Assembly: GCA_001643675.2 (NCBI GenBank)
Contig: LSRY02000022.1
Coordinates: 62,001-126,000, forward strand
Direction of reading: 5' to 3'
Origin: Monocercomonoides exilis PA203
Lineage: Eukaryota > Protista > Preaxostyla
Length of the DNA stretch: 64,000 nt
Within the stretch, counting starts at the first letter, position 1. Every line of letters starts with the position of its first letter. The translations under genes and the position numbers were made by a program. Below, piece after piece: positions 31,701-63,411 of the stretch. The notes under the pieces were generated by a model, which was not told where the DNA came from, searched no databases, and saw only the letters and a program-made list of their open reading frames with translations.

Positions 31701-34700
31701 GGAGAAGATTACATCAAGTTCAAGTGCTGTGATGAAAATCACAAGTACAAGTGAGGTTGAGATTTCATTGAATAAATGCACATTTACAGAATGTACTTCA
31801 AGCGATACTACAACAGCGACAAGTGGAGCACTTTATGTTGAAAGCGAAAATGCTGGAAGCACTTTTACTATTGGAGGCACAGACAAAACGACATTTACTT
31901 CGTGCACTTGTACCAATGGGAAATCAGGTGGGATATATCTGAAAATGACAGGAATTGCAGGTGAGAAACAATTGAGCTGGGGCACTGGTGTAAAATTGGA
32001 GTTTAGTGAGTGCACTGCAACAGGGTCAAAGAGTACAGGATTGTATCTTGAAGTACCCGTTAATCTTCATGAGAACATAGCCGCAACCATGAAATCAAGT
32101 TTTGCACAAAATTACAAACGAACTAGCCATGAGAGTGTTGTTGTTGCAAAAGGAGAAAATAATATCGAAGTTGATTTCACTGCAAAATATTTCGATCCAG
32201 AAGAACCGCCAGCATCTCCTTCAACAATGGCATATGTGCAAAGTGGAGAGGAAATGGAAACGCCAGATGGAACAAAAGCAAAACCATATAGATCTATGAA
32301 AACTGCTTATGAGCAGCTTACAGGAGATGAAGAAACAGGAGGATATGTCATTAAAGTTATAACAGCAGCTGGATTGCTTACAGTGGAAGCCAATACGTTT
32401 GCAAAAAAAGACAGGAATTACGATAGAAGGAGTGGACAATGCAGCAGTAGAAGAAGAAACAAACACAAAAGTGGAGATCAACTACGGCGCTACTCTTGAA
32501 ACAGATCTGTTCACATGCAAAGAAATGGTGACATTCAAGCATTTGGTGTTTGGCTTCTCAGCAACATCTGGACAAACTGAAGGCGTATTCGCTCTTATTC
32601 ATGCTGCTGAGGGATCGGTTTCTCTAACAATTGAGACCTGCGAGTTTAAGCGACCTGGATCTGGGGACAATATTGGAATCCATCTTGTGAGAGTGAGTGC
32701 AGGTTCATTGACAATGACTGGAGTTGGTTGTGCAGATGAGGAAAATGTGGCTTCATTCACAGCAACGCCATTTTTAGTTGACGGAACAACATCAACAGTA
32801 ACATTGACCGGATTGAATCTGGAGAAGATTACATCAAGTTCAAGTGCTGTGATGAAAATCACAAGTACAAGTGAGGTTGAGATTTCATTGAATAAATGCA
32901 CATTTACAGAATGTACTTCAAGCGATACTACAACAGCGACAAGTGGAGCACTTTATGTTGAAAGCGAAAATGCTGGAAGCACTTTTACTATTGGAGGCAC
33001 AGACAAAACGACATTTACTTCGTGCACTTGTACCAATGGGAAATCAGGTGGGATATATCTGAAAATGACAGGAATTGCAGGTGAGAAACAATTGAGCTGG
33101 GGCACTGGTGTAAAATTGGAGTTTAGTGAGTGCACTGCAACAGGGTCAAAGAGTACAGGATTGTATCTTGAAGTACCCGTTAATCTTCATGAGAACATAG
33201 CCGCAACCATGAAATCAAGTTTTGCACAAAATTACAAACGAACTAGCCATGAGAGTGTTGTTGTTGCAAAAGGAGAAAATAATATCGAAGTTGATTTCAC
33301 TGCAAAATATTTCGATCCAGAAGAACCGCCAGCATCTCCTTCAACAATGGCATATGTGCAAAGTGGAGAGGAAATGGAAACGCCAGATGGAACAAAAGCA
33401 AAACCATATAGATCTATGAAAACTGCTTATGAGCAGCTTACAGGAGATGAAGAAACAGGAGGATATGTCATTAAAGTTATAACAGCAGCTGGATTGCTTA
33501 CAGTGGAAGCCAATACGTTTGCAAAAAAAGACAGGAATTACGATAGAAGGAGTGGACAATGCAGCAGTAGAAGAAGAAACAAACACAAAAGTGGAGATCA
33601 ACTACGGCGCTACTCTTGAAACAGATCTGTTCACATGCAAAGAAATGGTGACATTCAAGCATTTGGTGTTTGGCTTCTCAGCAACATCTGGACAAACTGA
33701 AGGCGTATTCGCTCTTATTCATGCTGCTGAGGGATCGGTTTCTCTAACAATTGAGACCTGCGAGTTTAAGCGACCTGGATCTGGGGACAATATTGGAATC
33801 CATCTTGTGAGAGTGAGTGCAGGTTCATTGACAATGACTGGAGTTGGTTGTGCAGATGAGGAAAATGTGGCTTCATTCACAGCAACGCCATTTTTAGTTG
33901 ACGGAACAACATCAACAGTAACATTGACCGGATTGAATCTGGAGAAGATTACATCAAGTTCAAGTGCTGTGATGAAAATCACAAGTACAAGTGAGGTTGA
34001 GATTTCATTGAATAAATGCACATTTACAGAATGTACTTCAAGCGATACTACAACAGCGACAAGTGGAGCACTTTATGTTGAAAGCGAAAATGCTGGAAGC
34101 ACTTTTACTATTGGAGGCACAGACAAAACGACATTTACTTCGTGCACTTGTACCAATGGGAAATCAGGTGGGATATATCTGAAAATGACAGGAATTGCAG
34201 GTGAGAAACAATTGAGCTGGGGCACTGGTGTAAAATTGGAGTTTAGTGAGTGCACTGCAACAGGGTCAAAGAGTACAGGATTGTATCTTGAAGTACCCGT
34301 TAATCTTCATGAGAACATAGCCGCAACCATGAAATCAAGTTTTGCACAAAATTACAAACGAACTAGCCATGAGAGTGTTGTTGTTGCAAAAGGAGAAAAT
34401 AATATCGAAGTTGATTTCACTGCAAAATATTTCGATCCAGAAGAACCGCCAGCATCTCCTTCAACAATGGCATATGTGCAAAGTGGAGAGGAAATGGAAA
34501 CGCCAGATGGAACAAAAGCAAAACCATATAGATCTATGAAAACTGCTTATGAGCAGCTTACAGGAGATGAAGAAACAGGAGGATATGTCATTAAAGTTAT
34601 AACAGCAGCTGGATTGCTTACAGTGGAAGCCAATACGTTTGCAAAAAAGACAGGAATTACGATAGAAGGAGTGGACAATGCAGCAGTAGAAGAAGAAACA

Positions 34701-37700
34701 AACACAAAAGTGGAGATCAACTACGGCGCTACTCTTGAAACAGATCTGTTCACATGCAAAGAAATGGTGACATTCAAGCATTTGGTGTTTGGCTTCTCAG
34801 CAACATCTGGACAAACTGAAGGCGTATTCGCTCTTATTCATGCTGCTGAGGGATCGGTTTCTCTAACAATTGAGACCTGCGAGTTTAAGCGACCTGGATC
34901 TGGGGACAATATTGGAATCCATCTTGTGAGAGTGAGTGCAGGTTCATTGACAATGACTGGAGTTGGTTGTGCAGATGAGGAAAATGTGGCTTCATTCACA
35001 GCAACGCCATTTTTAGTTGACGGAACAACATCAACAGTAACATTGACCGGATTGAATCTGGAGAAGATTACATCAAGTTCAAGTGCTGTGATGAAAATCA
35101 CAAGTACAAGTGAGGTTGAGATTTCATTGAATAAATGCACATTTACAGAATGTACTTCAAGCGATACTACAACAGCGACAAGTGGAGCACTTTATGTTGA
35201 AAGCGAAAATGCTGGAAGCACTTTTACTATTGGAGGCACAGACAAAACGACATTTACTTCGTGCACTTGTACCAATGGGAAATCAGGTGGGATATATCTG
35301 AAAATGACAGGAATTGCAGGTGAGAAACAATTGAGCTGGGGCACTGGTGTAAAATTGGAGTTTAGTGAGTGCACTGCAACAGGGTCAAAGAGTACAGGAT
35401 TGTATCTTGAAGTACCCGTTAATCTTCATGAGAACATAGCCGCAACCATGAAATCAAGTTTTGCACAAAATTACAAACGAACTAGCCATGAGAGTGTTGT
35501 TGTTGCAAAAGGAGAAAATAATATCGAAGTTGATTTCACTGCAAAATATTTCGATCCAGAAGAACCGCCAGCATCTCCTTCAACAATGGCATATGTGCAA
35601 AGTGGAGAGGAAATGGAAACGCCAGATGGAACAAAAGCAAAACCATATAGATCTATGAAAACTGCTTATGAGCAGCTTACAGGAGATGAAGAAACAGGAG
35701 GATATGTCATTAAAGTTATAACAGCAGCTGGATTGCTTACAGTGGAAGCCAATACGTTTGCAAAAAAGACAGGAATTACGATAGAAGGAGTGGACAATGC
35801 AGCAGTAGAAGAAGAAACAAACACAAAAGTGGAGATCAACTACGGCGCTACTCTTGAAACAGATCTGTTCACATGCAAAGAAATGGTGACATTCAAGCAT
35901 TTGGTGTTTGGCTTCTCAGCAACATCTGGACAAACTGAAGGCGTATTCGCTCTTATTCATGCTGCTGAGGGATCGGTTTCTCTAACAATTGAGACCTGCG
36001 AGTTTAAGCGACCTGGATCTGGGGACAATATTGGAATCCATCTTGTGAGAGTGAGTGCAGGTTCATTGACAATGACTGGAGTTGGTTGTGCAGATGAGGA
36101 AAATGTGGCTTCATTCACAGCAACGCCATTTTTAGTTGACGGAACAACATCAACAGTAACATTGACCGGATTGAATCTGGAGAAGATTACATCAAGTTCA
36201 AGTGCTGTGATGAAAATCACAAGTACAAGTGAGGTTGAGATTTCATTGAATAAATGCACATTTACAGAATGTACTTCAAGCGATACTACAACAGCGACAA
36301 GTGGAGCACTTTATGTTGAAAGCGAAAATGCTGGAAGCACTTTTACTATTGGAGGCACAGACAAAACGACATTTACTTCGTGCACTTGTACCAATGGGAA
36401 ATCAGGTGGGATATATCTGAAAATGACAGGAATTGCAGGTGAGAAACAATTGAGCTGGGGCACTGGTGTAAAATTGGAGTTTAGTGAGTGCACTGCAACA
36501 GGGTCAAAGAGTACAGGATTGTATCTTGAAGTACCCGTTAATCTTCATGAGAACATAGCCGCAACCATGAAATCAAGTTTTGCACAAAATTACAAACGAA
36601 CTAGCCATGAGAGTGTTGTTGTTGCAAAAGGAGAAAATAATATCGAAGTTGATTTCACTGCAAAATATTTCGATCCAGAAGAACCGCCAGCATCTCCTTC
36701 AACAATGGCATATGTGCAAAGTGGAGAGGAAATGGAAACGCCAGATGGAACAAAAGCAAAACCATATAGATCTATGAAAACTGCTTATGAGCAGCTTACA
36801 GGAGATGAAGAAACAGGAGGATATGTCATTAAAGTTATAACAGCAGCTGGATTGCTTACAGTGGAAGCCAATACGTTTGCAAAAAAGACAGGAATTACGA
36901 TAGAAGGAGTGGACAATGCAGCAGTAGAAGAAGAAACAAACACAAAAGTGGAGATCAACTACGGCGCTACTCTTGAAACAGATCTGTTCACATGCAAAGA
37001 AATGGTGACATTCAAGCATTTGGTGTTTGGCTTCTCAGCAACATCTGGACAAACTGAAGGCGTATTCGCTCTTATTCATGCTGCTGAGGGATCGGTTTCT
37101 CTAACAATTGAGACCTGCGAGTTTAAGCGACCTGGATCTGGGGACAATATTGGAATCCATCTTGTGAGAGTGAGTGCAGGTTCATTGACAATGACTGGAG
37201 TTGGTTGTGCAGATGAGGAAAATGTGGCTTCATTCACAGCAACGCCATTTTTAGTTGACGGAACAACATCAACAGTAACATTGACCGGATTGAATCTGGA
37301 GAAGATTACATCAAGTTCAAGTGCTGTGATGAAAATCACAAGTACAAGTGAGGTTGAGATTTCATTGAATAAATGCACATTTACAGAATGTACTTCAAGC
37401 GATACTACAACAGCGACAAGTGGAGCACTTTATGTTGAAAGCGAAAATGCTGGAAGCACTTTTACTATTGGAGGCACAGACAAAACGACATTTACTTCGT
37501 GCACTTGTACCAATGGGAAATCAGGTGGGATATATCTGAAAATGACAGGAATTGCAGGTGAGAAACAATTGAGCTGGGGCACTGGTGTAAAATTGGAGTT
37601 TAGTGAGTGCACTGCAACAGGGTCAAAGAGTACAGGATTGTATCTTGAAGTACCCGTTAATCTTCATGAGAACATAGCCGCAACCATGAAATCAAGTTTT

Positions 37701-40700
37701 GCACAAAATTACAAACGAACTAGCCATGAGAGTGTTGTTGTTGCAAAAGGAGAAAATAATATCGAAGTTGATTTCACTGCAAAATATTTCGATCCAGAAG
37801 AACCGCCAGCATCTCCTTCAACAATGGCATATGTGCAAAGTGGAGAGGAAATGGAAACGCCAGATGGAACAAAAGCAAAACCATATAGATCTATGAAAAC
37901 TGCTTATGAGCAGCTTACAGGAGATGAAGAAACAGGAGGATATGTCATTAAAGTTATAACAGCAGCTGGATTGCTTACAGTGGAAGCCAATACGTTTGCA
38001 AAAAAGACAGGAATTACGATAGAAGGAGTGGACAATGCAGCAGTAGAAGAAGAAACAAACACAAAAGTGGAGATCAACTACGGCGCTACTCTTGAAACAG
38101 ATCTGTTCACATGCAAAGAAATGGTGACATTCAAGCATTTGGTGTTTGGCTTCTCAGCAACATCTGGACAAACTGAAGGCGTATTCGCTCTTATTCATGC
38201 TGCTGAGGGATCGGTTTCTCTAACAATTGAGACCTGCGAGTTTAAGCGACCTGGATCTGGGGACAATATTGGAATCCATCTTGTGAGAGTGAGTGCAGGT
38301 TCATTGACAATGACTGGAGTTGGTTGTGCAGATGAGGAAAATGTGGCTTCATTCACAGCAACGCCATTTTTAGTTGACGGAACAACATCAACAGTAACAT
38401 TGACCGGATTGAATCTGGAGAAGATTACATCAAGTTCAAGTGCTGTGATGAAAATCACAAGTACAAGTGAGGTTGAGATTTCATTGAATAAATGCACATT
38501 TACAGAATGTACTTCAAGCGATACTACAACAGCGACAAGTGGAGCACTTTATGTTGAAAGCGAAAATGCTGGAAGCACTTTTACTATTGGAGGCACAGAC
38601 AAAACGACATTTACTTCGTGCACTTGTACCAATGGGAAATCAGGTGGGATATATCTGAAAATGACAGGAATTGCAGGTGAGAAACAATTGAGCTGGGGCA
38701 CTGGTGTAAAATTGGAGTTTAGTGAGTGCACTGCAACAGGGTCAAAGAGTACAGGATTGTATCTTGAAGTACCCGTTAATCTTCATGAGAACATAGCCGC
38801 AACCATGAAATCAAGTTTTGCACAAAATTACAAACGAACTAGCCATGAGAGTGTTGTTGTTGCAAAAGGAGAAAATAATATCGAAGTTGATTTCACTGCA
38901 AAATATTTCGATCCAGAAGAACCGCCAGCATCTCCTTCAACAATGGCATATGTGCAAAGTGGAGAGGAAATGGAAACGCCAGATGGAACAAAAGCAAAAC
39001 CATATAGATCTATGAAAACTGCTTATGAGCAGCTTACAGGAGATGAAGAAACAGGAGGATATGTCATTAAAGTTATAACAGCAGCTGGATTGCTTACAGT
39101 GGAAGCCAATACGTTTGCAAAAAAAGACAGGAATTACGATAGAAGGAGTGGACAATGCAGCAGTAGAAGAAGAAACAAACACAAAAGTGGAGATCAACTA
39201 CGGCGCTACTCTTGAAACAGATCTGTTCACATGCAAAGAAATGGTGACATTCAAGCATTTGGTGTTTGGCTTCTCAGCAACATCTGGACAAACTGAAGGC
39301 GTATTCGCTCTTATTCATGCTGCTGAGGGATCGGTTTCTCTAACAATTGAGACCTGCGAGTTTAAGCGACCTGGATCTGGGGACAATATTGGAATCCATC
39401 TTGTGAGAGTGAGTGCAGGTTCATTGACAATGACTGGAGTTGGTTGTGCAGATGAGGAAAATGTGGCTTCATTCACAGCAACGCCATTTTTAGTTGACGG
39501 AACAACATCAACAGTAACATTGACCGGATTGAATCTGGAGAAGATTACATCAAGTTCAAGTGCTGTGATGAAAATCACAAGTACAAGTGAGGTTGAGATT
39601 TCATTGAATAAATGCACATTTACAGAATGTACTTCAAGCGATACTACAACAGCGACAAGTGGAGCACTTTATGTTGAAAGCGAAAATGCTGGAAGCACTT
39701 TTACTATTGGAGGCACAGACAAAACGACATTTACTTCGTGCACTTGTACCAATGGGAAATCAGGTGGGATATATCTGAAAATGACAGGAATTGCAGGTGA
39801 GAAACAATTGAGCTGGGGCACTGGTGTAAAATTGGAGTTTAGTGAGTGCACTGCAACAGGGTCAAAGAGTACAGGATTGTATCTTGAAGTACCCGTTAAT
39901 CTTCATGAGAACATAGCCGCAACCATGAAATCAAGTTTTGCACAAAATTACAAACGAACTAGCCATGAGAGTGTTGTTGTTGCAAAAGGAGAAAATAATA
40001 TCGAAGTTGATTTCACTGCAAAATATTTCGATCCAGAACAACCACCTAAACCACCTACTCAAATTTCAATTGTTTATGTTAAGTATAATGCTGAAAGCTC
40101 TGGTTTATCATTCAATGAACCAATTGGAAGTTTAATGAGTGCATACAATTTATTCTCTTTCTCATCAAATTTGAAGATGTATTCGATGAGAATAATTGCT
40201 AACGATGATATGATAAAGGCTGAAACAATATCTTTTGAGAGAAGTGAACAATTGACAATTGAAGGAATTATTAATGCTGAAGGAAAGAATGAAATTGCAA
40301 AGATGGATTGCAAGATTAATTCAGGAAGTAATTTGTTCACATGCAAAAAGAGTGTTACTTTCAAATACCTGTCATTTGCTTTTCCATTGTCATTGAAATC
40401 AAACGGAAAGAGTCAGTTTAATGAGGTGACAGATTCGCTGGCATTGATTGTCTCAGAGGGTGGAGATTCAAAGCTCACAATAAATGATTGTGTATTTGTT
40501 CGACCAAATGCAAAGGCAAATGAGGGAGAGAACATTGCAGACATTCATCTTGTGAAGGTGAAAGCAGGAGATGTGAGTTTGGAAACAGTGAGCTGTGTTG
40601 ATGGGGAAAGCAAAGCTTCATTCCAAAAGCCTCTGATAGATATTGAAGGAGCGAAAAGAGTGATACTGAAGGGAGTAAAGGTGAGCAATGTTGAAGTTGA

Positions 40701-41763
40701 AGATGGGGCGGCCATCAGCATCGCTGATGGAAGTGGAGAGGCCTCGAGTGTGGTGATTGATGGGCTGAACATGGAAAGTGTTGAATCGAAGAATTCAGAA
40801 ACCGCAGCGCTGATGATCAAGATGACATCAGAAACTTCATCAGTGGAGTTGGGAAGAGAAGAGAAATGCTCGTTCAAATCGTGCAAAGCACCACAAGGGA
40901 AGTCGGGGGCTGCGTTCATAGAGATGAAAAACTCAGTAACGAATCTGAAACTTCCAGCAGAGGGCAAGCTGGATATTGATGAGACAAACACTGGGAGTGG
41001 ATCTAAATCAACATCGCTGTGCATTGTTGCCCCAGACTTTGAGGAGTTCAGCAAGCAGGATGGGGCGTTTGAGTTTGCGAAGGATTACAAAGATGAAAAC
41101 TCAGGGTGGATTGTGGGAGCCAAGGATGAGACATCCAAACCGGTTGATGTGTATGAGAATTATCTGAAAAAAGAAGAACCCGCTGTAGATCCTGAACCAG
41201 ATCCACTTGAAAAAGCAGACAATAAAAAATCAAATGGAGGAGTGATTGCGGTTGCGATTGTGGTGCCGATTGTGTTTGTGGCAGTGGTTGTTGCAGTGGT
41301 TATTATTTACACAATTCAAGTGAGGAAAAGAAGATCAAAGTACATGAATGACTCGGAAGATGAACAAAGCTTAAGGTCTGGAATTCGAATATATTCAAAG
41401 GAGGAAAAGAGGAATGAAGTGGAAATGAGTGAATTCCACGAGAACGAAAAGCAAAGTGAAGAGCAAATGCATCCTGTTTCAAATGAAAATGTTCAGGTGG
41501 TTTCTTCTGGCAATCAACAGTCTGGGAGCAACGAAAGAGTTATGAGTGCGAATGAAACAGTGACAAATGAAACCAACCAGAATTCGAGTGATGTTAATGC
41601 AGGTGTGAATAACGAAAAGAGAGAAGTTTCGGATTCATCTGCAAATTCTTCAGAAGAAAACAACGAAATGATTTCAGCTCCATCAACAAACACACCAGAA
41701 GAAACTAACGCTCTGAATAATTTGCAAACTGAAGATCAAAAAATTAGCACACAAAACAAATAA
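28778..41763 (+). CDS. Giant type I membrane/surface protein (~4,326 aa if five +1 A slips are removed) with ten 373-aa beta-helix/pectin-lyase-like repeats
   Basis: Hydrophobic N-terminus MNFILYLFLFRII. Repeats contain GTKAKPYRSMKTA, CxFxxC, TSGALYV and KSGGIYL motifs. A divergent 11th domain follows, then TM GVIAVAIVVPIVFVAVVVAVVIIY + RKRRSK and an acidic N/S/E-rich tail. The frame breaks only at an A6/A7 run. Confidence 0.85.
28873..40038 (+). repeat. Ten tandem 1119/1120-bp repeats
   Basis: Unit starts at 28873, 29992, 31112, 32232, 33352, 34472, 35591, 36710, 37829 and 38948. Units 2-5 and 10 have GC-A7-G; units 1 and 6-9 have GC-A6-G. Encoded peptides are otherwise identical. Confidence 0.95.
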
Positions 41764-42760
41764 GATTCATTTCATGGATAGCTATTCACAAGATTTCATG
41801 TGAACAACACATAAAGTTAAAAAACTCTCATTGTACTTATTTTATGAGAGCATTCGTTTTCCAATTTGTGACTCAATTTATTATTGTATATTCATCATTA
41901 TAATTTTGTTTTTCGTTTCTTTTTGTGTTCATTAGAAGCGATACACTCTGTTTATGAATTAAGCAGATTTTTTATTTTATTTTTTTCAAATACAGTATTT
42001 TTTTGATTGTTTGTTGATCCATTTGGCAAAATGGAAGTTATACCGATTTTTAACATCATTTTCAGTTGAAAAAGTTACACCTTTAAAAACACATCATTTT
42101 TTTATCTAACTATTGTAGTTATTTCAATCGAAATAGGTGATTCCTTTTTGGAACTCATATTCTGAACTGTTTGAATTTTTTGTTATTTGCTTTCATAGTT
42201 TTTTTTTGTTCATTTTCTTTCTCATTTTTTTTTTATTTTAAAATTCTTTCGAAAGGAGCTTTCTTTTGTACAAAAGATATTCAGTTTTTGGATATTCTTC
42301 GCTAGAATAAAGAGCTTTGCAGTTTTTTTTATATTTCTTCAAGAGATTTTTTTAAATGCGAAATGAAAGAAATATTATCAATTTTCTTATTTTTTCATAT
42401 TTTTATCATCTCAAAAACCATTAATTTACTCAATCAAATTTGAAAAGAAAAATCCTAATTGCAAACAAAAAAACACAAAAACATTCATCTGCGATGTTTG
42501 AAAAGCAAAAATTGAACAATTTGAAAAGCTCATTTTCGTTGAATAAATTAAACAACATGAATAATAATCATTTGTGAAACAAAAAAATATTTATTATTGA
42601 GAAATTTATAACTTTATTTTGAAAAATTCATTTTCTGAAAATTTCAACATTTTGAGAAGAATTTCAGAATATTTGGCAAAAGCATATTATTGGGGAACTC
42701 GAATTTTTCAAAAATATTAAAAACAAATGGACATAATAAAGTATTAGAATCATTTATTTA

Positions 42761-44965
42761 AAGACATGGACAAAACCCGGGAAAGTCTAATGAATAACTC
42801 AAAAAAGAAAAAGTGAATAAAGGAAATTGATATTGAAAATAACAAACGCTTTCATATTGCTCTTCAATTATTCGATGCTATCTTTTTTTGAAAATATGTA
42901 ATTTCGAAATTTTTTTTTAGAATGTTTGGATCATAAAGCTATTATGTTTGCTTTTTCTTGCAATATGTCTTCTTTTCTTTCTTCATCGGAACTTTCAAAG
43001 GTTTTAGCCACTGCAGAATTTTGAAGATTTAATTCAAAAGTTGAAAAAATTAATTTTCTTCTTTCAAGAAAAGAGATTACACACAAAAGCATTATTTCAT
43101 CTGGCTTAGTTTCTTCTTCAGCTCTATATTGACATATATCTTCTTTAAATCAGGGAAGAGATCCCCAACACAATGGCAGACCGAATTTGTTCAACAAAGA
43201 TGAACAAGAAGAAATAGAAGACTGTGCCAAATCTCTTTTTCTTTCAACGGATAAAATTACATTCAAAGACATCATTAAAATAGTTTTGTTTTTGTTTAAA
43301 AATATATATTAACTTTTTTGATGTTGTATTTTCAGGCTGAACACGTCTTGCAATGAAAAAACCGAAACAAGTATGACAACAGCGAATTGGCAGAAATTTA
43401 TGAAAAATGGGCAAGATGGTTCATAAAAAGAAGCAATGCCTTGCAAATGGTAAAACCAAAATCCATTGATGTGAAAAGGTTGTTTGCATTTTCAACGGAA
43501 AACATTTCAGCGTGGTTTTCATTGCTGGGGGAAACAATAAGAACAAACAAAATTTGCGCCGATCTGATATTAAATATAGACGAAACAGGAGTCAGTTTGT
43601 GTCAATCCGATAACGATTTCGTTATCAAACGATCAGATCAAGAAGATCCAATGTTGCACTCTCAACAACATCAGCCCAACGCAACATTGGTTTTCAGAGT
43701 TTTTGCAGATGGATCTTCTATTAATCCAGTGATGATTTGGCCCTCAAAAACTGTACCTAAAGATCTTGCAGTATTAAAATATCATCGACTAGAAATAGTG
43801 GCCAACGGAAGCGGGTGGATGACAAAAAATGACTTTGAAGAAATCATGATAAAAAACATATTACCTACAGTTAACAAAAAAAGAATTGAACTTCATGGTT
43901 CGGAAGCGTCGGCGCTTATAATAATGGATGGGCATTCATCGAGGCTTTGCTGGCCTGTTATCACATGGTGTCGTGAACATTCAATCGAAATTATTATTCT
44001 TCCTTCGCACACCGCACATTTGACACAACCGCTTGATCGCTATGTGCTTGCGCAATTCAAAAAAAGACTGAATTCATCTTTTCATCCTCCAACCGAAAGC
44101 GGAATATCGTCATATCGAAAAGCTCTTGTGCCAGCATTGGCAGATGCAGTGAGTGCTGCGTTAGAATGTAGAACTATCAAAAAATCGTTCTACGCTTGCG
44201 GGATTGAGCCATTTGATCCGTCAGTTGTTTTAGACCGACTGCCCAATCAGTCTTCAATTACAAAAATATCTTCAATTAGTTCATCGGCCCATGCTTAAAA
44301 TGGAGTATTTAACATGAAAGTTTTAACAAGTGATGATTTTATTCAGGAGAACGAACTAAGAAAAGAAGGTTTGAATATTTTCATTAAATTTGAATGAAAT
44401 AATTATCTAATTTATTCTTATTTTATTGTTCCGAGAAAAAGATGAAAGGATATTGTGTAACTTGAAAGACAGTCTGAAAAAGCAAATATCAGAGAGGAAA
44501 GCAAACGAGGATAAATGCGATGGGAAAACAAAATGCAAGATATCAGAACAAACTCGTGAAGAAGAAATAGATGTATCTTCTTTGTTTTCAGGAGAAAAAC
44601 GAAAAAGAAAACAAGTGTCTGAAACAAAATGGGGAAAACTATTCTATTTCAGCTGTAAGTGACTTATCTTTTCAAACAATTTTGTTTTGCCACTTGATGA
44701 TAGAATTTTTTTTATTTTGTTCGATTATTTTCATATAGTCTCATATCAGCCAATGTTTCTTTTCGATAGTGATTTTGGATGCTCGTTTCATTTGTAATCA
44801 AGAAAAACATATTAAAAAAACATCGTATGATCATTTTTCAAATAAATATTTATTTTTGTTTATTTAAAAAAAAGAAATTAGGAAGTGGAGTCAATTGTTA
44901 AAAAACTTTTCAATTGATTGGACATTCCCGGGTTTTGTCCCTTTCCCGGGTTTTGTCCATGTCTT
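42761..44965 (+). mobile_element. Complete pogo/Tigger-like DDE_1 transposon (~2.2 kb), TA TSD
   Basis: 25-bp perfect TIR AAGACATGGACAAAACCCGGGAAAG (42761-42785) / 44941-44965, with a tandem inner TTCCCGGGTTTTGTCC copy at the right end. TA at 42759-42760 and 44966-44967. Confidence 0.9.
42965..44298 (+). pseudogene. DDE_1 transposase pseudogene with intron 43283-43335
   Basis: ATG 42965 and an N-terminal putative DNA-binding region with TGA stops. Catalytic motifs LNIDETG, GSGWMTK, IIMDGHSSR, LPSHTAHLTQPLDRYV. TAA at 44296 is probably premature. Confidence 0.88.
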
Positions 44966-45598
44966 TATATATGAAAATTTGAGATCATCAATCATTTATA
45001 TTCATTTTCGAAATCAAAGCAGTTTTATATGACACAGTTTTTTTTATTAAAAGTTATATACTAAAAAAACTCTGCATTTATAGATTGGAATAGGTTCGAA
45101 GGTTAACGTGACAGACCTTGAGTTAAGGGTTTTGTTCCCATTCTTTTTTCAGAGCTTGAACTCTTAAAAGTGACAAAATATTCAGCTCTGTAAATTATGT
45201 TCCACACAGTTCTTTCAAAAATATTATTCGATTTTTGATATTTTCAAATTGATTATTGCACAATAATGTCAGAATAATTATCATAATATAGCAAAAAAAG
45301 TCTGGAACAAATCTTTGTTTTTTTCATAAATGAATGAATTTCGCTCCATTAGCTCAATCTTTAAAAAATTCAGTGTTTCGTTTAAAAAAATATGGTTGAT
45401 AAGTCCATAAATGTTGTTAATCATTAAGTTTATAATTAGAGTCTTTCAGAGATAAATGTCATTTAAATAATCCAAAGAACTTTATGAAAACTTTGATTGT
45501 TCAAGAAAGTTATCTAATATTTGTCAAAATGATAAATATTCATGTTTTCGAATGATCCAATTGTTTACAAGAGATATAATATATTAATCACAAATTCT

Positions 45599-46385
45599 TC
45601 TCGATAAAAGATCAATCAATATTATCTATTTATGTATGTCTGATGGTAGTTGTTATTTTGTATAATAAGTTAGAATAAGCAGTGTGGAGAGATAGATGAT
45701 CGACACTTATTGCCAATAGAATTATCGATGACTATGAAGGCAGTGATGTTCTATAAAGAAGGAGTTATTGATAGGTGTAATCGAGATATATCTATAGCCG
45801 ACATACCATATCTCCAAGGAGGAGATTAGCTGAAAGATTCGTTTGAGGCGTTCAAGTTGGTGAAATTAGCGGGTAAATAAGTGTGAAAATTGGTGAAATC
45901 GTTTGTGAAATCGTAAATAAAAATAATTGATTTTGTTTTTTGTTTTATAGTAAATGGGTCGGAAGAAGATATACACGACTGTGGAAGAAGCGAAAGCTGC
46001 TCAACAGAAACAAATTAAACAGTATCAGGAAAAACGTAAGGAAGAAACAAAGTATTACAACGAACATGTATCTGACAAACAGAAGAAGAAGATTAATATA
46101 TTGAGGAGAAAGCTTATCGAAAGTGATGAGCTGTTAGATGAGTTGATGGAAAAAGTTAGTGAGTAAGGTGGACACGATTATATTTTTGGTTGAATGTGTT
46201 AACTGTTTTGCCTGCACAGGGTGGACAGGTTGAGCTGTACAGGTAACAAGTGTGTGCTATGGTGTGGAAATATTGGGTTAAATCTCCGTGCTGGAAGTGT
46301 GGACAGGTGAACCGGGTGGACCGGGTCAATTATATTCCAGAAATTATGTGTTCAAACGGGTTAACTGAGCAAAGTCGGAATAATA
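45599..46385 (+). repeat. Left TIR (787 bp)
   Basis: Reverse complement of 49311-50097; no mismatch seen by eye. Confidence 0.93.
45954..46166 (+). CDS. 70-aa basic helical protein within left TIR (putative DNA/terminus-binding)
   Basis: Intact ATG-TAA ORF MGRKKIYTTVEEAKAAQQKQIKQY..., preceded by a T-rich/AT-rich leader; identical in the right TIR. Function inferred. Confidence 0.75.
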   Translation: MGRKKIYTTVEEAKAAQQKQIKQYQEKRKEETKYYNEHVSDKQKKKINILRRKLIESDELLDELMEKVSE

Positions 46386-46513
46386 CATTTAATGTGAAAA
46401 TTAACTGTTATCATTGACTTTCGACGTTAACCCCGACGTCATCTTCCCCGTATATTACCGTTTCAAAAATAAATATGTTTAAAAAAAATTTTGTTTTTTT
46501 AATTTTTTTTAAA

Positions 46514-48856
46514 ATGACAAACCCCTAAACAGACTCTGACAACGTAATCCAACAATTAATTGATTCAATGTCAACAGAACAATAAACGCTGGGAGAATGA
46601 ATAAAAGATCACCTTGTTGACATGTTCGACTTCAAGATATACTCTGACAAGAAACGGGGCCAAAGACACACTGGAACAGCTGTCGATATCAGAAAATGAG
46701 AGGATTTCCGTGTTGTTGATGTTGATATTAACAAATCCCTTCAAGCTGAACAAACGAAAACCATCAGGAATTCCATTCTCGAGAAACTTCCATGAAATGT
46801 CGGACTTGTTCAAACAGCTCATGGTTGTCTTCACATTTATTGTGAGCTGTGTGGTTATCCCCTCAAATGTTCTTCACAAATCAAAGTGTTCACGAGTTGG
46901 CAGTTCGAAATCGACATTTTTGCAGGTATTGGAGATGGTTAACAGAGGCTTGTTGTTCAAGATGACTTTTCATTTAGAGAGATGAAAGATGGCAAGAGAT
47001 TCATCACCAAATACATTCCCCTCAACAATTCCAGAGAGCTCAGATATCTATCATCACTTGAGAGTGTTCTTGACATTTTCGGTATTAATCATAAAACCGA
47101 GAATACATCAGCGATAATTGCAGCTGAACCACACAATCTTCTCACACAAGATGGTGTCGTTGATATGTCTCCAACTGTCGCTCTTGCTCTTGTCGATGGA
47201 CTCAAAGATGTTGAAATACATAACGATACAAGTTCTCTGTTTCTTAATTCTGAGTTAACTCTTTTGCCGTTATTTGCAGCTCTCAACTTTCTCGTCAACA
47301 TTGACGGTTTCGACAACCAATCGATAGATTTTCTTAACACTCAAATCAAAGACTCAGCTGCTCAAACAGCAAATGCAATCACTCACCATGAAGAGAAACA
47401 AAACATATACAGAGATAACAAGTCACATCCATTTGTTCTACAAAAGATTGTCAAGAGATGGAATCCAACATATTGCAACGGTGTGATTATTCCACTTCTC
47501 AGAAAAGAGAATGAGAAAAAAAAAGAACCTCCACGAGAGATCACTGTTCATTAAATCGATCTCAACTCATCGTTCTCGTTCTCTGAAATCAGGGATAAAG
47601 CTTGTCGAAAACAATACTCCACACTGTCTGAAGTCGCTGAAGATCTCACAAAAGTTCAGAGTTTTATTGAAGCAAGGATGGAATTCATTGTGAAAGAGTT
47701 TGACATTCACTCCTCTAATTATTCAATTTCAATAAAGACAAAATCAGCAATGTGTGAATCGTTCAAAACAATAAAACTCTGGCATGATGATAATAAGACT
47801 CTCACAGTTGAGACAGCTTTCCAACAACACTCTCATGTTCTATCGATCGATAGGGTGAAGTTCTTCTCAGACAACCCTCGAATATTCTCTCTGTTCCATG
47901 GGTTCAAATACCAAATGGCAAACGAACAAAACGAAGAAATCATCAAACCATTCCTTGATTTCACACGAGAAGTTATCGCCAACAACAACGATGAACTCTG
48001 TCAATACATCCTCTGTTGTATTGAGTCAATTGTTCAAAATCCTGGTCATAAAGCAGAAACATCACTTGTTTTCAAAGGTTTGCAGGGTATTGGATAGAAT
48101 GTCTGGACAAATGTTCTTGCTGAACTGTTGGCAGGATATTCATGTCCGAATGTCACAGAGATTGCAGAACTGTCAGGACAGTTCAACTCCATCGTCGAAG
48201 GGAAAATGTTGATTGTACTTAATGAATTGAAGAATGTTGGAGATGATCGAACAGCTAACTTTGACGCATTGAAGAGTTCAATCACAAATTCAACAATCAG
48301 AATTAATGAGAAGAATCAGCCAAGAAGAACAGCTGAAAACGTTGCTAATTTCATATTTGTGACAAATCACACGTACCCTGTTAAGATTGAGATTGGTGAC
48401 AGAAGATATGTTGTTTGTGATTGTGACTCAAAATATATGAACAATCTCACATTCTTCAAGGATTTCACAAACTCTTTCAACAATGAATTCTATTAACGAC
48501 TTCTCTGTTATTTCATCATCAAAGATCTCACCAATTTCAACACTATGGCTATTCCAACAAATGAGGCAAAGGAAGATATCATTGCAGCATCACTCTCTGT
48601 CATCGATGTGTTCTGTCAGGAGCATTTCAATAAACTCAAAGAAGGGTGGAGATGTTCTGAAGCACTATGTTTCAGACCAGTTGAATACAAGAACGATCGC
48701 TCATTCCAACTGGTAATTAAAGACAAATGTGAGAGAATACGAGTAGATGGAAGGGGAGATCAAGTGTGGTGTTATAAACTTAATCCAGAGAATGAACAAC
48801 TCCTCAAACGACGAGAAGATGAAGATGACACGGACTGTTCTGTGGAAATTACCTAA
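46514..48856 (+). pseudogene. AEP (Prim-Pol type) primase-polymerase fused to D5-like/DUF5906-type SF3 helicase; 780 codons with 9 in-frame stops
   Basis: One frame with no indels. AEP motifs RVVDVD, QTAHGCLHIY and EIDIF. Helicase motifs FSLFHGF, KGLQGIG*N (Walker A, Lys codon now TAG), LIVLNE (Walker B), FIFVTN (sensor) and GDRRY. Stops at 46526, 46583, 46598, 46697, 46793, 46940, 47552, 48095 and 48494. Confidence 0.88.
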
Positions 48857-49310
48857 ACATATTCGTTTTTTTGAAAATCATTGATTCACCAACTATGCAA
48901 CTTGTGTGTGACACCTGTTATATTCCACCAACGATTCCATGTGGCAATGTGGCAAAATGATAACACTCATAAAAAACAAAAATATCTCAAAATCATACCA
49001 AATTAAGGGGAAAATGCTCATGTTGGCAGAAATGGCATGTTGGCAGCTCTTTTCAGATGAAATTAAAAGATCCGGACTGCCGGACTACCGGACTACGCTT
49101 CCAGCACGGAGATTTTAGCCAATATTTCCCTTCCCCAAGTATCTCGATATTTCCACAATTCGGTGTCCGGTTCACCGATTGACACTTTTTCAAACAAAAA
49201 TATATATGTTGACAATCAACTATAACGTCATCGTGACTACTGTTTGATACAATCTATAATACAACAAACGCGATTAGTCTGTTATATTTCGTCAATTTTC
49301 ACATAAAATA

Positions 49311-50097
49311 TATTATTCCGACTTTGCTCAGTTAACCCGTTTGAACACATAATTTCTGGAATATAATTGACCCGGTCCACCCGGTTCACCTGTCCACACT
49401 TCCAGCACGGAGATTTAACCCAATATTTCCACACCATAGCACACACTTGTTACCTGTACAGCTCAACCTGTCCACCCTGTGCAGGCAAAACAGTTAACAC
49501 ATTCAACCAAAAATATAATCGTGTCCACCTTACTCACTAACTTTTTCCATCAACTCATCTAACAGCTCATCACTTTCGATAAGCTTTCTCCTCAATATAT
49601 TAATCTTCTTCTTCTGTTTGTCAGATACATGTTCGTTGTAATACTTTGTTTCTTCCTTACGTTTTTCCTGATACTGTTTAATTTGTTTCTGTTGAGCAGC
49701 TTTCGCTTCTTCCACAGTCGTGTATATCTTCTTCCGACCCATTTACTATAAAACAAAAAACAAAATCAATTATTTTTATTTACGATTTCACAAACGATTT
49801 CACCAATTTTCACACTTATTTACCCGCTAATTTCACCAACTTGAACGCCTCAAACGAATCTTTCAGCTAATCTCCTCCTTGGAGATATGGTATGTCGGCT
49901 ATAGATATATCTCGATTACACCTATCAATAACTCCTTCTTTATAGAACATCACTGCCTTCATAGTCATCGATAATTCTATTGGCAATAAGTGTCGATCAT
50001 CTATCTCTCCACACTGCTTATTCTAACTTATTATACAAAATAACAACTACCATCAGACATACATAAATAGATAATATTGATTGATCTTTTATCGAGA
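49311..50097 (-). repeat. Right TIR (787 bp)
   Basis: Reverse complement of 45599-46385. Confidence 0.93.
49530..49742 (-). CDS. 70-aa basic protein, identical copy in right TIR
   Basis: Same peptide as 45954-46166. Confidence 0.75.
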   Translation of the reverse strand: MGRKKIYTTVEEAKAAQQKQIKQYQEKRKEETKYYNEHVSDKQKKKINILRRKLIESDELLDELMEKVSE

Positions 50098-50475
50098 TGG
50101 ATCTATAGGTGATATTCCATATCTCTCACATTAGGATTGCTTTTTCCACATTTTTGAATAAATGGAATTTGTGACTTTAGTTTATTTTAAAAGAAAATTT
50201 TAATTTTCAATTTTTTTTTTGAAGAACTGAAAAGAAAATAATGAAACTTTGAATGAAAAAGTTGGAAACAAACTCATTTTTGTTTCTTCAATAATGAAGT
50301 TGACTTTGAATGATTATGAAAACAATTTTTGAAATTAAAACTATGTGTGATTCATTAAAAATAAACCTGCGAAAATATAACACCACACCATTAAGAATGA
50401 AGCATTCTTTCAGCAGATAATCTCAATATCCTTTTCAGAACTAGTATTGATTCTTTTCAACAATAATTGAATATA

Positions 50476-50852
50476 CAGTTTGTACAAAAAATTTCTGACA
50501 AGATCGATATCTCAATAACTGCATAAGGAATAATTCTGACAATTTTCCTCAAAATACATCTCATCAACGCAAACTCATTTGATATACAAATCTTTCAAAG
50601 CAGCTTCATTTGTGCTCAGAAATAATTATTTTTGAAATTTCGGAAAAATTCAAAATCCTATTTCTCCGAGAATTCAAATATCATTTTTTCTGAGCACAAA
50701 TGAAGCTGCTTTGAAAGATTTGTATATCAAATGAGTTTGTATTGATGAGATATATTTTGAGGAAAATTATCAGAATTATTCCTCTTGCAGTTATTGTGAA
50801 ATCGATCTTGTCCGGTATTTTTTGCGATGTCCTGTATTTTTAGCATAAACTG
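50476..50852. mobile_element. Tc1/mariner-pogo-type foldback MITE (CAGTTT...AAACTG, TA TSD)
   Basis: TA|CAGTTT at 50474-50481 and AAACTG|TA at 50847-50854. Internal arms ~50497-50622 and ~50687-50812 are inverted with scattered mismatches. Confidence 0.8.
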
Positions 50853-51019
50853 TATATCAATTTATTCATAAAAATTATTGCAAAAGTTTTTTTATTTAAT
50901 ATTATTAGCATTTATGAAGCAGATGAGATAATTTATCTTCCACTGCTTTTATTTCATTTTATTTTTTTATTTATTTATTTTTTTTTTTTATTTTGCTTTT
51001 TCGAAAAGCTGATTGAAAG

Positions 51020-58050: not shown

Positions 58051-58704
58051 TTTTTCATTATTGGTTCTTTTTTTATTTTTGCATGCCAATCATTCAATAA
58101 AGCTAGATGGACCTCAACACTCGGATGAGGGTGTTTATAAAACAAAGACATTAAATTACAGGTTTGTTTTTTAAATTTTGTTTATTTTTCGTAGAGATAC
58201 AGCAAATTTTTTTATTTTTAAGTGACTTTTTTCAGCCGAGGAAGCATCTATCTATAATAATACTTTGAAACATGCATTTGGCTCCACATCTCAGATTTTT
58301 TTAATATTTTGTGCATGTGCTGTTCCCCATGTGTTGACCCCATATTCGACCCTTATTCCGCCTCATGCTCCCCACCTGGATGGATATAATTCAAAAAAGT
58401 CGAAAAAGACCAAAAATGTGACCCACAAATCTGGACTCCCAGAAGGCTCTGCAACTTTCTTTTATTTTTATTTTGAAAATTGGATTTTTCCCACACCTAA
58501 TACCAAATATTTCTGGAATCGCTTCAGCCGTTGTTTTTCTGTGATTTTTTCAACACGATTTTTTTATCATTTTTGACAAGAAAATAGATTTTCATTGAAC
58601 GAGTTTTTCATTAACTATTAACATGTATATCATGTGTTATTCTCCAAAATAATGTCAAATATTCTTTATTGAATCATATTCAATCATTCTGATGGTATTG
58701 ATAT

Positions 58705-61700
58705 GGGTCATTATTTTTCATATCGTAACTTTGTTCGAAGAAAGATCTTTTTTTTCATAATTGTGGTATGAGCAATAAAAAGCTCAAATATGTGTTAATA
58801 GGTGAAATGAAAAGGAAGTGTGAAGGAATTATTGAAAAATAAGTGAAATTGAGAAAATCTTGAAAATACCATTACAACATTTATTTTTTGGCAATTTTTA
58901 ATAAATGAATTATTTAGTATTACAACACCCAACAAGAGCAATTGTTGTTTGAAAATAATTATAATTTGAGTATGAATTAGTGTTATTACTTTTTTTTGTG
59001 ATTTGAATTAAACAACATCTGAAAATAAATGATTGATTGATTTATTACATTTTTGTGTAAAATAGCAAGGTTTATAATTTTTGTGGTTATCTTTTTGATG
59101 AAATAATTAATGTTATTAACGATGTATTTCTATTTTGAGCGATTTGAGATATTTATGCGAAGCATTGATAAACAAATATTCCATAAAAAAAGGAAAATCG
59201 AATTCGAAGCGAAGTCGAATATGCAGTTATTTGTGATTAATGTTGATTGATTTTAAAAATTGAATGAAGGATGAAGAGCTTGGGGATTGCAATCTTTTAT
59301 TGTATTGTGTTGTTGTTTCTCGTTGTTTTTTTTATTTGTTATTCGTTCCAAACATTGTGCATTATTTTATTTATTGAAATGGTTATTGTTTTTTTAAATA
59401 AATTCTTTTCTTATGTTAGAAAAAATCAATCTTTTCACTGAATTTTATAGAGATTTATCTTTTTTTTGAAAAGGTGAAATGATAAAATAAAAATCGAAAC
59501 ACTTGAATATGATGCCTCATTTCACATATGACACGGTTACGAAAAACAATGTTTTGTATTTTTTGAAGGCAGTGAACATATGAAATGAGAGAAAAAAACG
59601 AAACAGATAAAACAAATAAAAAATTCAAAGAAAAGCTCTAGAAATCATTGAAAGAAAAAAAGATTCAATAATGCTGTTTTGTTTCTTTTTTAATCAATTT
59701 GCAGCAATTTTTTGACAGAATAATTTCATGTTGCTCTGTTGTTTTGAACTTCATAGCGCTTTTTGAAAAGTTAAAACTCAGAAAAGAAAATGCTGAATTT
59801 GATTTATTTCTGATTTGCGACGCTTTTTAAGAATGGATCACAACATGAAACAATAAACAAAAAAGCCATAAAAAAACTAATATCAAATGAGATTCTACGG
59901 TTAATCTGATATCAAACGTGTGCTTTTGCAGCTTTTGTATTTTTCAGCAGAGCTTATTATTCCACTCACTTTCATTTTTCTTTCCTTTTATTCTCACTCC
60001 ATCATTCTCGCTTCCTCCTCTTTCTCTTTCTTTCCTCTTCTTGATTCTGCAGCTCAATAATTATGTCCTGCTCCAATTTCTTTTGCCACTCCCATTCCTC
60101 TTCTTCTCTTTGCTTCTCCCTTTTGTCCTCCCCTTATTTCGTTATGAACTTCTACAGGTTGCCTTGAAGCACTTTTCTCTTTTCCAGCTTCAGTGAATGC
60201 TTCACTGTCTGCTCTCTCGCAATGCACCACGCCTGGACCCCTTCTCTGAGAGTGATCTTCTCAAACACATCCTTCGCAACTTCAATTGAAAGATCAATTA
60301 TTACCGGCCTTTTTTTCATCTTCTCCTCATCTTTCATCCATCCTGCTCAGCTCCTCGACTGCCTCCTTTTCCAATGCTCCGAAATTTCCTCGTGTCCCTC
60401 AGTGACCTCTTCTCTCCTTCTGAGCTTATCGAACCAGATGTCCCATCGAGAGAAGATGACAAAGAATTGAAAAAAGCTGCCTGTGACAAAGCAGTTGAAG
60501 CTGGATGCTTCTGCTTCATCAGCCCCTGGTGCAGCATCAGATACACTTCCCTCATGCGCTTGATGCGCTTAAAGATGAATGCTGAATTCTTGGCCTCTGG
60601 TGCTTCTGCAGCTCCTTTGAGCTCCTTCTCTTTCTCTTCTTTGCATGCCTTCTTGCTCCATTTCTGCTCCAACTCCTTCCTTTTCTCCTCTTTCTCCTTC
60701 CTGATTCTTGAATACGACTTTTCTTCCATCTTGAACGTGCGTGTGAAGAACGGCAGAAGCTCCTCGTCTGACGTGAGAAGGTTCATCACAGACATCGACG
60801 GGTTTGCCTTCTACCCTGCTGCTGCTTTCCCCTGTGATGCACGATTCTGAGACACGTTGCCTTGCTGGCTCTGGTTCTAGCTCCGGCTCAGCTGCCCCAC
60901 TCCCTCTTCAGCACTTCCTTCGCTCTTCTCTTTATCATTTGCTGCCATCTTCTCGTTTTCTCCTCTTTCGGAGTCTGTCTGTTGGCTTCGTGGCTGTCCT
61001 GCTGTGTTTGTTTCGTTGACGGGATCAACTGCTCAATCTCATTGCTGTTTGCTTCATCAGCCTTCAGCATCGTCTGCTGCTGAATGAGAATATTCAGCTC
61101 ATCCTGCTCACTTTCCTCCTGCGAATCGCTCTCTCCCTCTGAACTCTCTTCTCTTTTTGCTTGTCTTCGTATTTTTGAAGCTTTTCAGAATTTTGCTGGC
61201 TTCCTTCGCTGCAACTGTCAGATGACGAGGCTTTCTGTACTGCTTCTTCATTCGCTTAGTCGCTTGCTCCACTTTCGCTTGCGTTCCCTTCTCCTTTCTA
61301 AGCTTTCCCTTTCTCCTTCAACTTCTCTTTTCTCCTTCTTTCCACGTCTTCTGGTGTGACGCTCGGAACCGATGCAATGAAAGATGAGATCTCCAACGGC
61401 TTCCCGCCAACATCTTCTTTGCCACAGATATTTTGTGCAGCTCTTCCTCTTCTTTCTCCCTTCTTTTTATCTCCTGCTGCTCTTTAAACTTCTTCATCTC
61501 ATCGTCGATCGCCTTCTGCCCAATCAACCTGATCGATGTGGGCTTTGCATTTCCATCTCTTCCTTTCTTCTTCAGAAACTCGTTCCTCTTCTTCTCATCC
61601 TGCTTCTCCAGTCTCTTCTTCTTCTTCTCTTTTCATTCTGTTTCATTTTCATAAACGCTGTCTTGTGTTTAATTCATCTGGCGATCCTTCTTCAAAGCTC

Positions 61701-62806
61701 TCAATCTATCAACAATTCCTTCAACAGCCTCAAAAAACTCACTTTTTGGCTTTCTCCATTTTCTCTTCTTCGCTTTCCTCCTCCTCTTCCTCCTCCACAT
61801 TCTCTTTCACTCCCCGTCTGCCCCATCCTCCCATTTCCTCCAAACAGTTTCCCACACACATTTCCACCCCTTCAAACCCCTTTCTGCGTGATGTTCCAAA
61901 ATGTCCCTCTGCACCCACCCAGCTCAAACACCCCCACCTCCTTGCCTCTCCCGATCTCCACACCACATCCCCTCACCACAACCACACTCCCCCTCAAATA
62001 AAACGCACTCCTCCCAATCATATCTTCAAACAGCTCAATCCATACCAACTCAACTGTCGTGTTCCTTAATTCCCTCATTTAAAAATGTTCATCTTCTTCC
62101 TTTTTCTTCATTTCATGGTGCCAATTGGCTGAAAACATCTAAAGAATAATCCTAATATCTAAATAATAAAACTGAAAAAAAAGTTAAATCCTTTTCAACA
62201 ATAGAAAAAGAAAAAAACAAACACCTCTGATTGTTTTTGTCCTTTAGAATTTTTCATTTTCGTCCATTTTCGTCTTAAAAAATATCAAAAATCCTTATAT
62301 AAATCCGTCAGCTCCGTTTTACATAATATTCCATTTGTTGTTTCATTACTTCGCATAAATATCTCAAATCGCTCAAAATAGAAATACATCGTTAATAACA
62401 TTAATTATTTCATCAAAAAGATAACCACAAAAATTATAAACCTTGCTATTTTACACAAAAATGTAATAAATCAATCAATCATTTATTTTCAGATGTTGTT
62501 TAATTCAAATCACAAAAAAAAGTAATAACACTAATTCATACTCAAATTATAATTATTTTCAAACAACAATTGCTCTTGTTGGGTGTTGTAATACTAAATA
62601 ATTCATTTATTAAAAATTGCCAAAAAATAAATGTTGTAATGGTATTTTCAAGATTTTCTCAATTTCACTTATTTTTCAATAATTCCTTCACACTTCCTTT
62701 TCATTTCACCTATTAACACATATTTGAGCTTTTTATTGCTCATACCACAATTATGAAAAAAAAGATCTTTCTTCGAACAAAGTTACGATATGAAAAATAA
62801 TGACCC
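58705..62806. mobile_element. 4.1-kb element with ~460-bp perfect TIRs, GGG...CCC termini flanked by AT(AT), carrying a decayed gene
   Basis: 58701-59162 is the reverse complement of 62349-62810. Junctions ATAT|GGGTCA and TGACCC|ATAT. No transposase recognised. Confidence 0.8.
59900..62270 (-). pseudogene. Decayed K/E-rich coiled-coil cargo gene of unknown function
   Basis: - strand ORF fragments 60152-60337, 60334-60795, 60888-61070, 61318-61527 and 61739-62078, separated by stops/frameshifts. A putative first exon (ATGGACGAAAATG...) near 62267 is followed by a GT-AG intron. Confidence 0.5.
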
Positions 62807-63411
62807 ATATAAATTTTATTTGAAGTTCAAAATTAGGCCTCTGCGACACACTTTTTTTGAGTGCAATTTGTCGGTCGAGAAATTATTCATTTGTCGAAAA
62901 TTTTGAAATGATTGTTTTTTCCCTAATTTTGCAATTCTTGAAAATATCTGACTTTCCTCAACTTCGCTGTTCCTATGTTTTTTTTTTTTTTCTTTTCTTT
63001 TTTTTTTCCTCACCATAATAATTATATTTTATGTGTTTTGAAAACAAATGAGAAATTTTTGAAAAAACTGGAGAAGATATATGAAAGGAATCAAACAGAT
63101 TGTTGTGTTCAAAAAAATACAATGATTTGGAATGGAAGTTTTTTAGGATATCATTGCTGCTGATGTGGATTTGATTAATAGAGATAATTTTAACGTTGTT
63201 ATTTTAAATGCTCTAAGAAAATTTTCTCATGAATAAGAATTGTTCTATTCATCATCTTCTTCTTCTTCCTCTTCCATTTCACCAGAACCTTTGCTTCCGC
63301 CCACTTCAACATGGCCATCTTCCATTGACACTCAATATCCATTTCGTACCACTTCATCAAAGCATCTCACATTACTCTCCACAACTCTATCTTTCATATT
63401 ACAAGTGCCTT

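Follow-up and report, generated by a model that had tools for sequence, protein, structure and literature searches.

A dispersed element with long terminal inverted repeats, Maverick-type ends and a primase-helicase gene in the genome of Monocercomonoides exilis

Introduction

Can a mobile element of a eukaryote consist of little more than its two ends and a replication gene? This question is raised by a locus of the oxymonad Monocercomonoides exilis PA203. The window, i.e., the whole stretch of DNA analyzed here, comprises 64,000 nucleotides (contig LSRY02000022.1 of assembly GCA_001643675.2, positions 62,001 to 126,000). It includes an element of 4,557 bp (45570..50126) in which two long terminal inverted repeats (TIRs) enclose one large frame for a primase-polymerase fused to a superfamily 3 (SF3) helicase. 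A preliminary description, made from the letters alone, presented the element as new, linear and self-replicating. This was an overstatement: the window copy is dead, and its ends and gene trace to metamonad Mavericks or Polinton-like viruses (PLVs). What we observed is a dispersed multi-copy family with a fixed end.

A dispersed family with a fixed end

The dispersal was studied in contigs from four runs (X1-X4) of one sample. Both junctions of the element with its flanks are bridged by exact contigs with no other letters (45386-45628 in X1; 45303-45628 and 50068-50375 in X2) and other copies exist, which speaks against the assembly artefact considered earlier. The summed depth, which is not equal to copy number, is 1,795-3,195 (X1) and 1,646-4,164 (X2) over the open reading frame (ORF), versus 31-43 and 91-102 for the junction contigs; we infer tens of copies from it. 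At the right end (50114-50146) the depth falls from 2,223 to 31 and is at the single-copy level beyond 50126. Seven contigs in X1 and five in X2 depart from the element behind 50126 and have unlike flanks; two each in X3 and X4 depart from it behind 50125. In a contig diverged by about 12% (X1, X2), the 3' flank of the ORF (48945-49068) is joined with the inner part of the right arm (49381-49558). Other contig joints span indels inside the arms. In X1, a variant at 46426, just past the inner end of the left arm, is present in 12 contigs. Contig depth and the loose ends with unlike flanks mark the whole element as a member of a dispersed family.

The inverted arms (left, 45570..46405, forward strand; right, 49291..50126, reverse strand) are 836 nt each and 98% identical. 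The perfect TIRs of 787 bp described earlier were recovered as their core (45599-46385 and 49311-50097). The 14 differences are confined to the edges: 11 fall in the outer 29 bases and three in the inner 20. The left arm opens with AGAGATAT and the right one closes with ATATCTCT. With this end motif (45570..45577, forward strand; mirror 50119-50126), the termini of the element are 5'-AGAGAT//ATCTCT-3' and share five of six letters with the Maverick motif 5'-(AG)3//(CT)3-3'; Maverick ends are given as this motif or as (AGT)2 (PMC8097293). The Maverick-type ends were overlooked in the preliminary description. Just inside the 8-bp motif (45578-45598), the left and right ends differ at 11 of 21 bases. 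This is far above the general decay of the window copy, and the stretch is variable in other copies too.

An inner inverted copy of a 35-bp terminal motif lies at 45780..45814 (forward strand; mirror 49882-49916). It is 83% like 50091-50125 and is a candidate binding site. A 50-bp sequence of the inner arm recurs in the 3' spacer at 49080..49129 (forward strand) as a third copy, which is partial and 82% like 49381-49430. A terminal hairpin was considered and rejected, as five sequences folded no better than shuffles (best z -0.93).

Each arm also includes an inward-pointing ORF of 70 codons (45954..46166, forward strand; 49530..49742, reverse strand). The two ORFs are identical, as had been noticed. 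Their Lys/Glu-rich product was called basic, but it is only mildly so (isoelectric point 9.3; 18 Lys and Arg versus 14 Asp and Glu residues). Its one relative, KAH7819006 (86% identical), is numbered directly after the helicase paralog KAH7819005, and one contig carries both. The arms and the small ORF had no match in 123 fetched loci or in viral contigs, and single-protein scans with P0001 gave no match.

The element has no gene for a family B DNA polymerase of the protein-primed type (pPolB) or an RVE integrase, nor room for them, according to the ORF list, a Pfam search of 12 read-through frames, and tblastn with 12 ORFs of three loci with relatives of the large gene (L120, L003 and L004, see below). 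The same sources gave no packaging ATPase or capsid protein; the ORF list and the Pfam frames gave no major capsid protein, integrase or tyrosine recombinase. These absences agree with the first description of the locus. The 12 frames (six-frame translations of two stretches, the 3' spacer and the region of the left arm) yielded no Pfam family, and neither they nor tblastn revealed a remnant of other Maverick genes within the window. A DDE_1 transposase ORF at 43387-44298 was excluded from the element because single-copy DNA lies between.

The primase-helicase gene

The large gene (46514..48856, forward strand) was reported earlier as a single frame of 780 codons. It is indeed continuous and without a frameshift, but it contains nine internal stops (five TAA, three TGA and one TAG). 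An alternative genetic code was rejected: all three stop codons are used, and the paralogs show varied residues at these sites. The stops are therefore nonsense decay, and the gene is a pseudogene. One of them replaces the Walker A lysine. The sequence TAHGCLHIY, quoted earlier as a motif of an archaeo-eukaryotic primase (AEP), is a damaged version of a family-invariant GG motif. Measured against the paralog majority, the window copy is changed at 89 of 758 positions, which amounts to about 5% at the DNA level, and its nine stops compare with about 4.6 expected. The changes are equally frequent at conserved sites (16 of 146) and other sites (67 of 561). The window copy is a dead gene under neutral decay.

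Its relatives are better preserved. A protein search gave 94 matches, with five M. exilis “Poxvirus D5” proteins at the top. The M. exilis paralogs comprise nine distinct gene models on eight contigs, 80-87% identical to the window copy; one of these, P0095 (804 aa), is full-length. The protist host proposed earlier (M. exilis or a close relative, to judge from the named paralogs) is thus supported, and so is the mobile, multi-copy nature, given nine paralogs and other copies ending at the same base. In P0095, changes fall on two of 144 conserved sites versus 32 of 559 elsewhere (p 0.029), a pattern that could be a weak sign that the gene mattered.

When translated through the stops, as had been suggested, the window copy matches DUF5906 (E 9e-18). 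Structure models were built from intact natural paralogs (pLDDT 86 and 84). In these models residues ~25-196 (46586..47101, forward strand; D69, D71 and H107 conserved) resemble the pRN1 primase-polymerase 3m1m (Z 10.1, root-mean-square deviation 3.3, 151 aligned), 1ro2 (Z 9.8) and the NrS-1 Prim-Pol 6a9w (Z 8.3). The top 13 structure matches are all primases or AEP polymerases. Residues 367-757 (47612..48784, forward strand) resemble the NrS-1 C-terminal region 6k9c (Z 26.9, root-mean-square deviation 4.6, 367 aligned; Foldseek E 8e-20), and next the helicases of SaPI5 (Z 18.9), African swine fever virus and vaccinia D5 (poxvirus D5 Z 16.4). Pfam detects only the helicase part (59 of 60 rows), and the ESM atlas places the N-terminus as Prim-Pol (0.97). 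Among 60 family rows D69 and D71 are invariant, and H107, K528, E571 and R630 are conserved at 97-98%. Thus the family unites AEP motifs (DxD, H) with the Walker A/B motifs and arginine finger of an SF3 helicase in one fusion. The intact relatives are predicted to fold as a primase-polymerase of the pRN1/NrS-1 type fused to an SF3 helicase of the NrS-1/D5 type, with predicted activity. The AEP fold and the D5-like helicase of the preliminary description hold in the models. In the window copy the GG motif is damaged, and a stop takes the place of the Walker A lysine.

Remoter relatives (29-45% identity) come from Trichomonas vaginalis (a cluster of 198 members, 40% identical to the window protein), Histomonas, Streblomastix and metagenomes. 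A profile search gave 3,423 representatives at E < 1e-30. In a quick tree of 58 rows (SH-aLRT support) the M. exilis paralogs form a star-shaped clade (100), which lies within a larger clade (100) that also includes Streblomastix and two proteins from metagenomes. Trichomonas, Histomonas and L120 form a distinct clade (96). Two other loci (L006, 133-2571; L007, 605-3145) encode the same helicase with another N-terminal domain, which suggests primase-domain swapping within the family. The gut-metagenome relatives L001-L004 have no primase domain and adjoin genes of HNH endonucleases and A32 ATPases; for the helicase-only relatives in L002 and L004 both neighbors were seen.

Identity of the arms

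The absence of differences over 787 bp would have a probability below 1e-17 if the arms decayed as the ORF did. The ORF is decayed by about 5%, so the perfect arms are no proof of recent activity. At 50042 and 50058 the arms carry common letters unlike nearly all other copies. Two more long inverted repeats of the window, 12567-21343 (3,488 bp at 99.8%) and 58697-62814 (482 bp at 99%), are unrelated to the element and also have identical cores, with mismatches mostly at the edges or in homopolymers. These repeats suggest that inverted arms close to each other undergo conversion throughout the genome, or that the assembly was polished; for the inner part of the right arm there is no separate contig confirmation. 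Because the ORF is decayed, the arm letters are distinctive and unrelated repeats look alike, we regard the arms as homogenized by inter-arm conversion or by polishing. They show no sign of recent activity.

Relation to Mavericks

The length of the arms is within the range of Mavericks. The TIRs of TvMav1/2 of T. vaginalis are 500-900 bp long (PMC12289875), and those of vertebrate Mavericks are 46-1,447 bp (PMC8097293). A third group, TvMav3, is marked by DUF4108, and a “Poxvirus D5 protein” is found in 8.6% of 1,705 copies (PMC12289875).

A full-length relative of the gene was found in a similar context at the locus L120. Upstream of its primase-helicase gene lie DUF4108 (E 6e-6, just under the cut-off), an A32-like ATPase and an ORF of 837 aa. 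The ATPase is weak alone (E 0.002), and most of its relatives carry PF04665. The 837-aa ORF had no sequence match in Pfam, PHROGs or PDB; the ESM atlas (0.96) and motifs judged by eye point to pPolB. We read L120 as a Trichomonas-type Maverick context. This Maverick fragment (1-9384) is placed inside a bacterial genome bin and is probably a binning contaminant. A T-rich stretch ending in AAATG is common to most L120 genes and both ORFs of the window element.

A Metamonada capsid group has been described, with a figure of 6 for the M. exilis assembly, which we read as a viral capsid gene count (PMC10120064). These six listed genes make a helper in M. exilis possible.

Metagenome contigs with the helicase extend less past the ORF than contigs with the ATPase (median 556 vs 1,547 bp). 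The comparison used 62 metagenome rows of the helicase, those with 700 aa or more among 94, and the best 120 of 582 ATPase rows. Short contigs were considered as a sign of TIR-flanked relatives, but this signal was discounted because contigs are equally short in the cluster closest to the L120 gene, which a Maverick carries, and the samples are unmatched.

Comparison with known elements

The closest known systems are the T. vaginalis Mavericks TvMav1-3 and the Metamonada Maverick-PLV group (PMC12289875; PMC10120064), which share with the element long TIRs, AG//CT-type ends and a related primase-helicase. They are 10-28 kb long with 10-20 genes, whereas the element has 4.5 kb and one large gene. 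Unlike them, it has no pPolB, integrase, ATPase or capsid, and the window copy has no 6-bp target-site duplication (TSD). In PLVs an AEP-SF3 replicase is the replication module (10.64898/2026.06.19.733378), and the element has the same replicase type; metamonad elements are left ungrouped in that study. Transpovirons are also small, capsid-less, linear, TIR-bearing and virus-dependent. They encode a pPolB-SF1 helicase fusion (PMC13215967) instead of AEP-SF3, and have 6-8 genes and accompany mimiviruses (PMC3671162), while the element has two genes. The NrS-1 polymerase, pRN1 ORF904, the SaPI5 primase-helicase and poxvirus D5 have the same domain order and, in the models, the same folds as the element protein; the identity is below 20%, and the element resides in a eukaryotic chromosome, with its activity predicted. 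By its defining genes the element is outside Mavericks, PLVs and transpovirons, although its parts are of Maverick lineage.

Stand-alone AEP-SF3 replicases have been proposed already (2024, 2026). In particular, mobile helicases and “end modules” of PLVs were suggested (PMC11296320), and AEP replicases were suggested to move autonomously, with one contig containing an AEP-gene-only element (10.64898/2026.10.13.758929). In these two papers autonomous movement of primase-helicases is a hypothesis that explains module swapping in PLVs, and its basis is replicases within viruses or single contigs. The element, by contrast, belongs to a family that is dispersed over chromosomes, has long TIRs and fixed ends, and encodes a small gene in its arms. 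As the protist is cultured and has a long-read genome, such a family makes the mobile-replicase idea testable. It would also name a part of the 35% of the M. exilis genome that is unclassified repeats (PMC8767320). If longer copies exist, the element is an ordinary deleted Maverick of little importance. The accessible text of the M. exilis genome papers counts 196 transposition- or virus-derived genes and does not describe the element; the supplement of PMC6759080 on virus-derived genes may name its genes. A search of an open-access library, with subscription papers and Repbase outside its scope, brought up no account of a dispersed family that is bounded by TIRs and carries AEP-SF3 only.

Origin of the element

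The explanation that we favor, with about even confidence, is that the element is a Maverick-derived unit cut down to its ends and replicase and inserted with the integrase of a helper. An enzyme-made insertion is favored because the copies have an exact common end with the Maverick motif. A metamonad Maverick or PLV would have given rise to a 4.5-kb unit of two arms, the small arm gene and the primase-helicase gene. The primase-helicase would unwind and prime DNA from an origin in the arm and amplify the excised linear unit, and the displaced strands may pair their own arms and thus re-form a duplex end. A co-resident Maverick would supply integration at the AG//CT ends, probably also protein-primed end completion, and possibly packaging. 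The unit would act as a replication-competent satellite without its own integrase; the primase-helicases of SaPI and P4 provide the satellite comparison. After insertion the ORF would decay neutrally, with the arms likely held alike by conversion. The satellite of a Polinton-like helper, one branch of the preliminary description, is thus also the reading preferred here.

More tentatively, and at a clearly lower level of confidence, the family could represent a distinct class of eukaryotic mobile elements, without capsid and integrase and composed of ends and an AEP-SF3 replicase. It would spread among both oxymonads and trichomonads as a hyperparasite of Mavericks. A mobile replicase has been proposed as the driver of replicase turnover in PLVs, and the family would be its free-standing form.

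Several observations weigh against the favored explanation. A Maverick integrase is expected to produce a 6-bp TSD (PMC8097293). As had been noticed, no TSD is visible: at the family terminus one of six letters matches, with a 2-bp CA (77 pairs of offset and length tried). Four of six letters match only if the end is shifted inward by one base, which is among 77 pairs for one old copy. The missing TSD speaks against an enzyme-made insertion, though the window copy is old. No contig of X1-X4 spans a whole second copy. The selection signal of P0095 is that of one copy among 10 and is uncorrected; pooled over nine paralogs the test gives p 0.063, and five of the nine show ratios of 0.85-1.47. As for Mavericks, L120 is the sole full-length relative in a long context (one of 123 fetched loci; 40% identity) and belongs to a parabasalid-like clade, not to the oxymonad one. 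The “Poxvirus D5 protein” of TvMav3 may be the P0031 family, as inferred from names only. No M. exilis row is among the best 120 of 582 ATPase matches, which is uninformative. Ends shared with a helper are hypothetical, as no Maverick sequence of M. exilis came to light.

A simpler possibility, which we consider somewhat doubtful, is a plain non-autonomous deletion derivative of a Maverick, with arms mobilized in trans and the primase-helicase as a passive passenger. The Maverick-type ends, the arm length and the position of the gene inside the Maverick L120 all fit it. So does the decay of most copies without detectable selection, and degraded elements prevail in Maverick families (PMC8097293). 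Against this, the gene from which the copies radiate was intact and every catalytic position is conserved, helicase gene models (nine) outnumber the listed capsid genes (six), and the window has no remnant of other Maverick genes.

It is unlikely that the element is autonomous and helper-free, either a linear plasmid of the nucleus or a mobile replicase, and enters chromosomes by self-copying into, or capture at, DNA breaks. A primase alone does not solve the copying of linear ends, and the folding result for the termini lends no support to a hairpin (z -0.93). The copies all stop at exactly the same base and carry a Maverick motif there, which fits enzyme-made ends. The lack of an integrase and a TSD would be expected for such a replicon; AEP-SF3 proteins with the pRN1 and NrS-1 folds alone run plasmid or phage replication, and mobility of this kind has been put forward (10.64898/2026.10.13.758929).

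Still less probable is a long-TIR cut-and-paste transposon of the Pack-MULE or Foldback type with a captured viral primase-helicase gene. Mutator ends start with GAGATA, which counts in its favor. Mutator-like elements (MULEs) and Pack-MULEs make TSDs of 9-11 bp, and the latter have ends in common with an element that encodes the MULE transposase. We found no TSD of 8-11 bp at seven end offsets (best 5 of 10), and every copy seen has the same single, originally intact cargo gene. The long arms with internal repeats are in line with this type, and MULEs are plentiful in Trichomonas (PMC12289875).

An assembly artefact or a local inverted duplication in place of element TIRs is very improbable. 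In its favor, two other inverted repeats of the window are likewise 99-99.8% identical, and the right-arm interior lacks separate contig confirmation. Against it, contigs run exactly across both junctions, the ORF flank is joined to the arm in other copies too, and the ends are fixed with unlike flanks; an artefact could account for the 100% identity but not for the layout.

Other features of the window

Upstream of the element, the region 28700-41800 holds a tandem array of ten nearly identical units, each 1,119-1,120 bp long, that encode a Thr/Glu-rich repeat protein with a weak beta-helix match (E 3e-4). The 1,119-bp units result in one open frame of 1,910 codons; the 1,120-bp units shift the frame. 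Two ORFs of DDE_1 (pogo-like) transposases are located at 43387-44298 (forward strand) and 398-1198 (reverse strand). There are also short fold-back elements at 2253-2569 (146-bp arms) and 50485-50824 (165-bp arms). The latter lies within a very high-copy repeat, with a summed depth of ~30,000 in X1 at 50548-50995.

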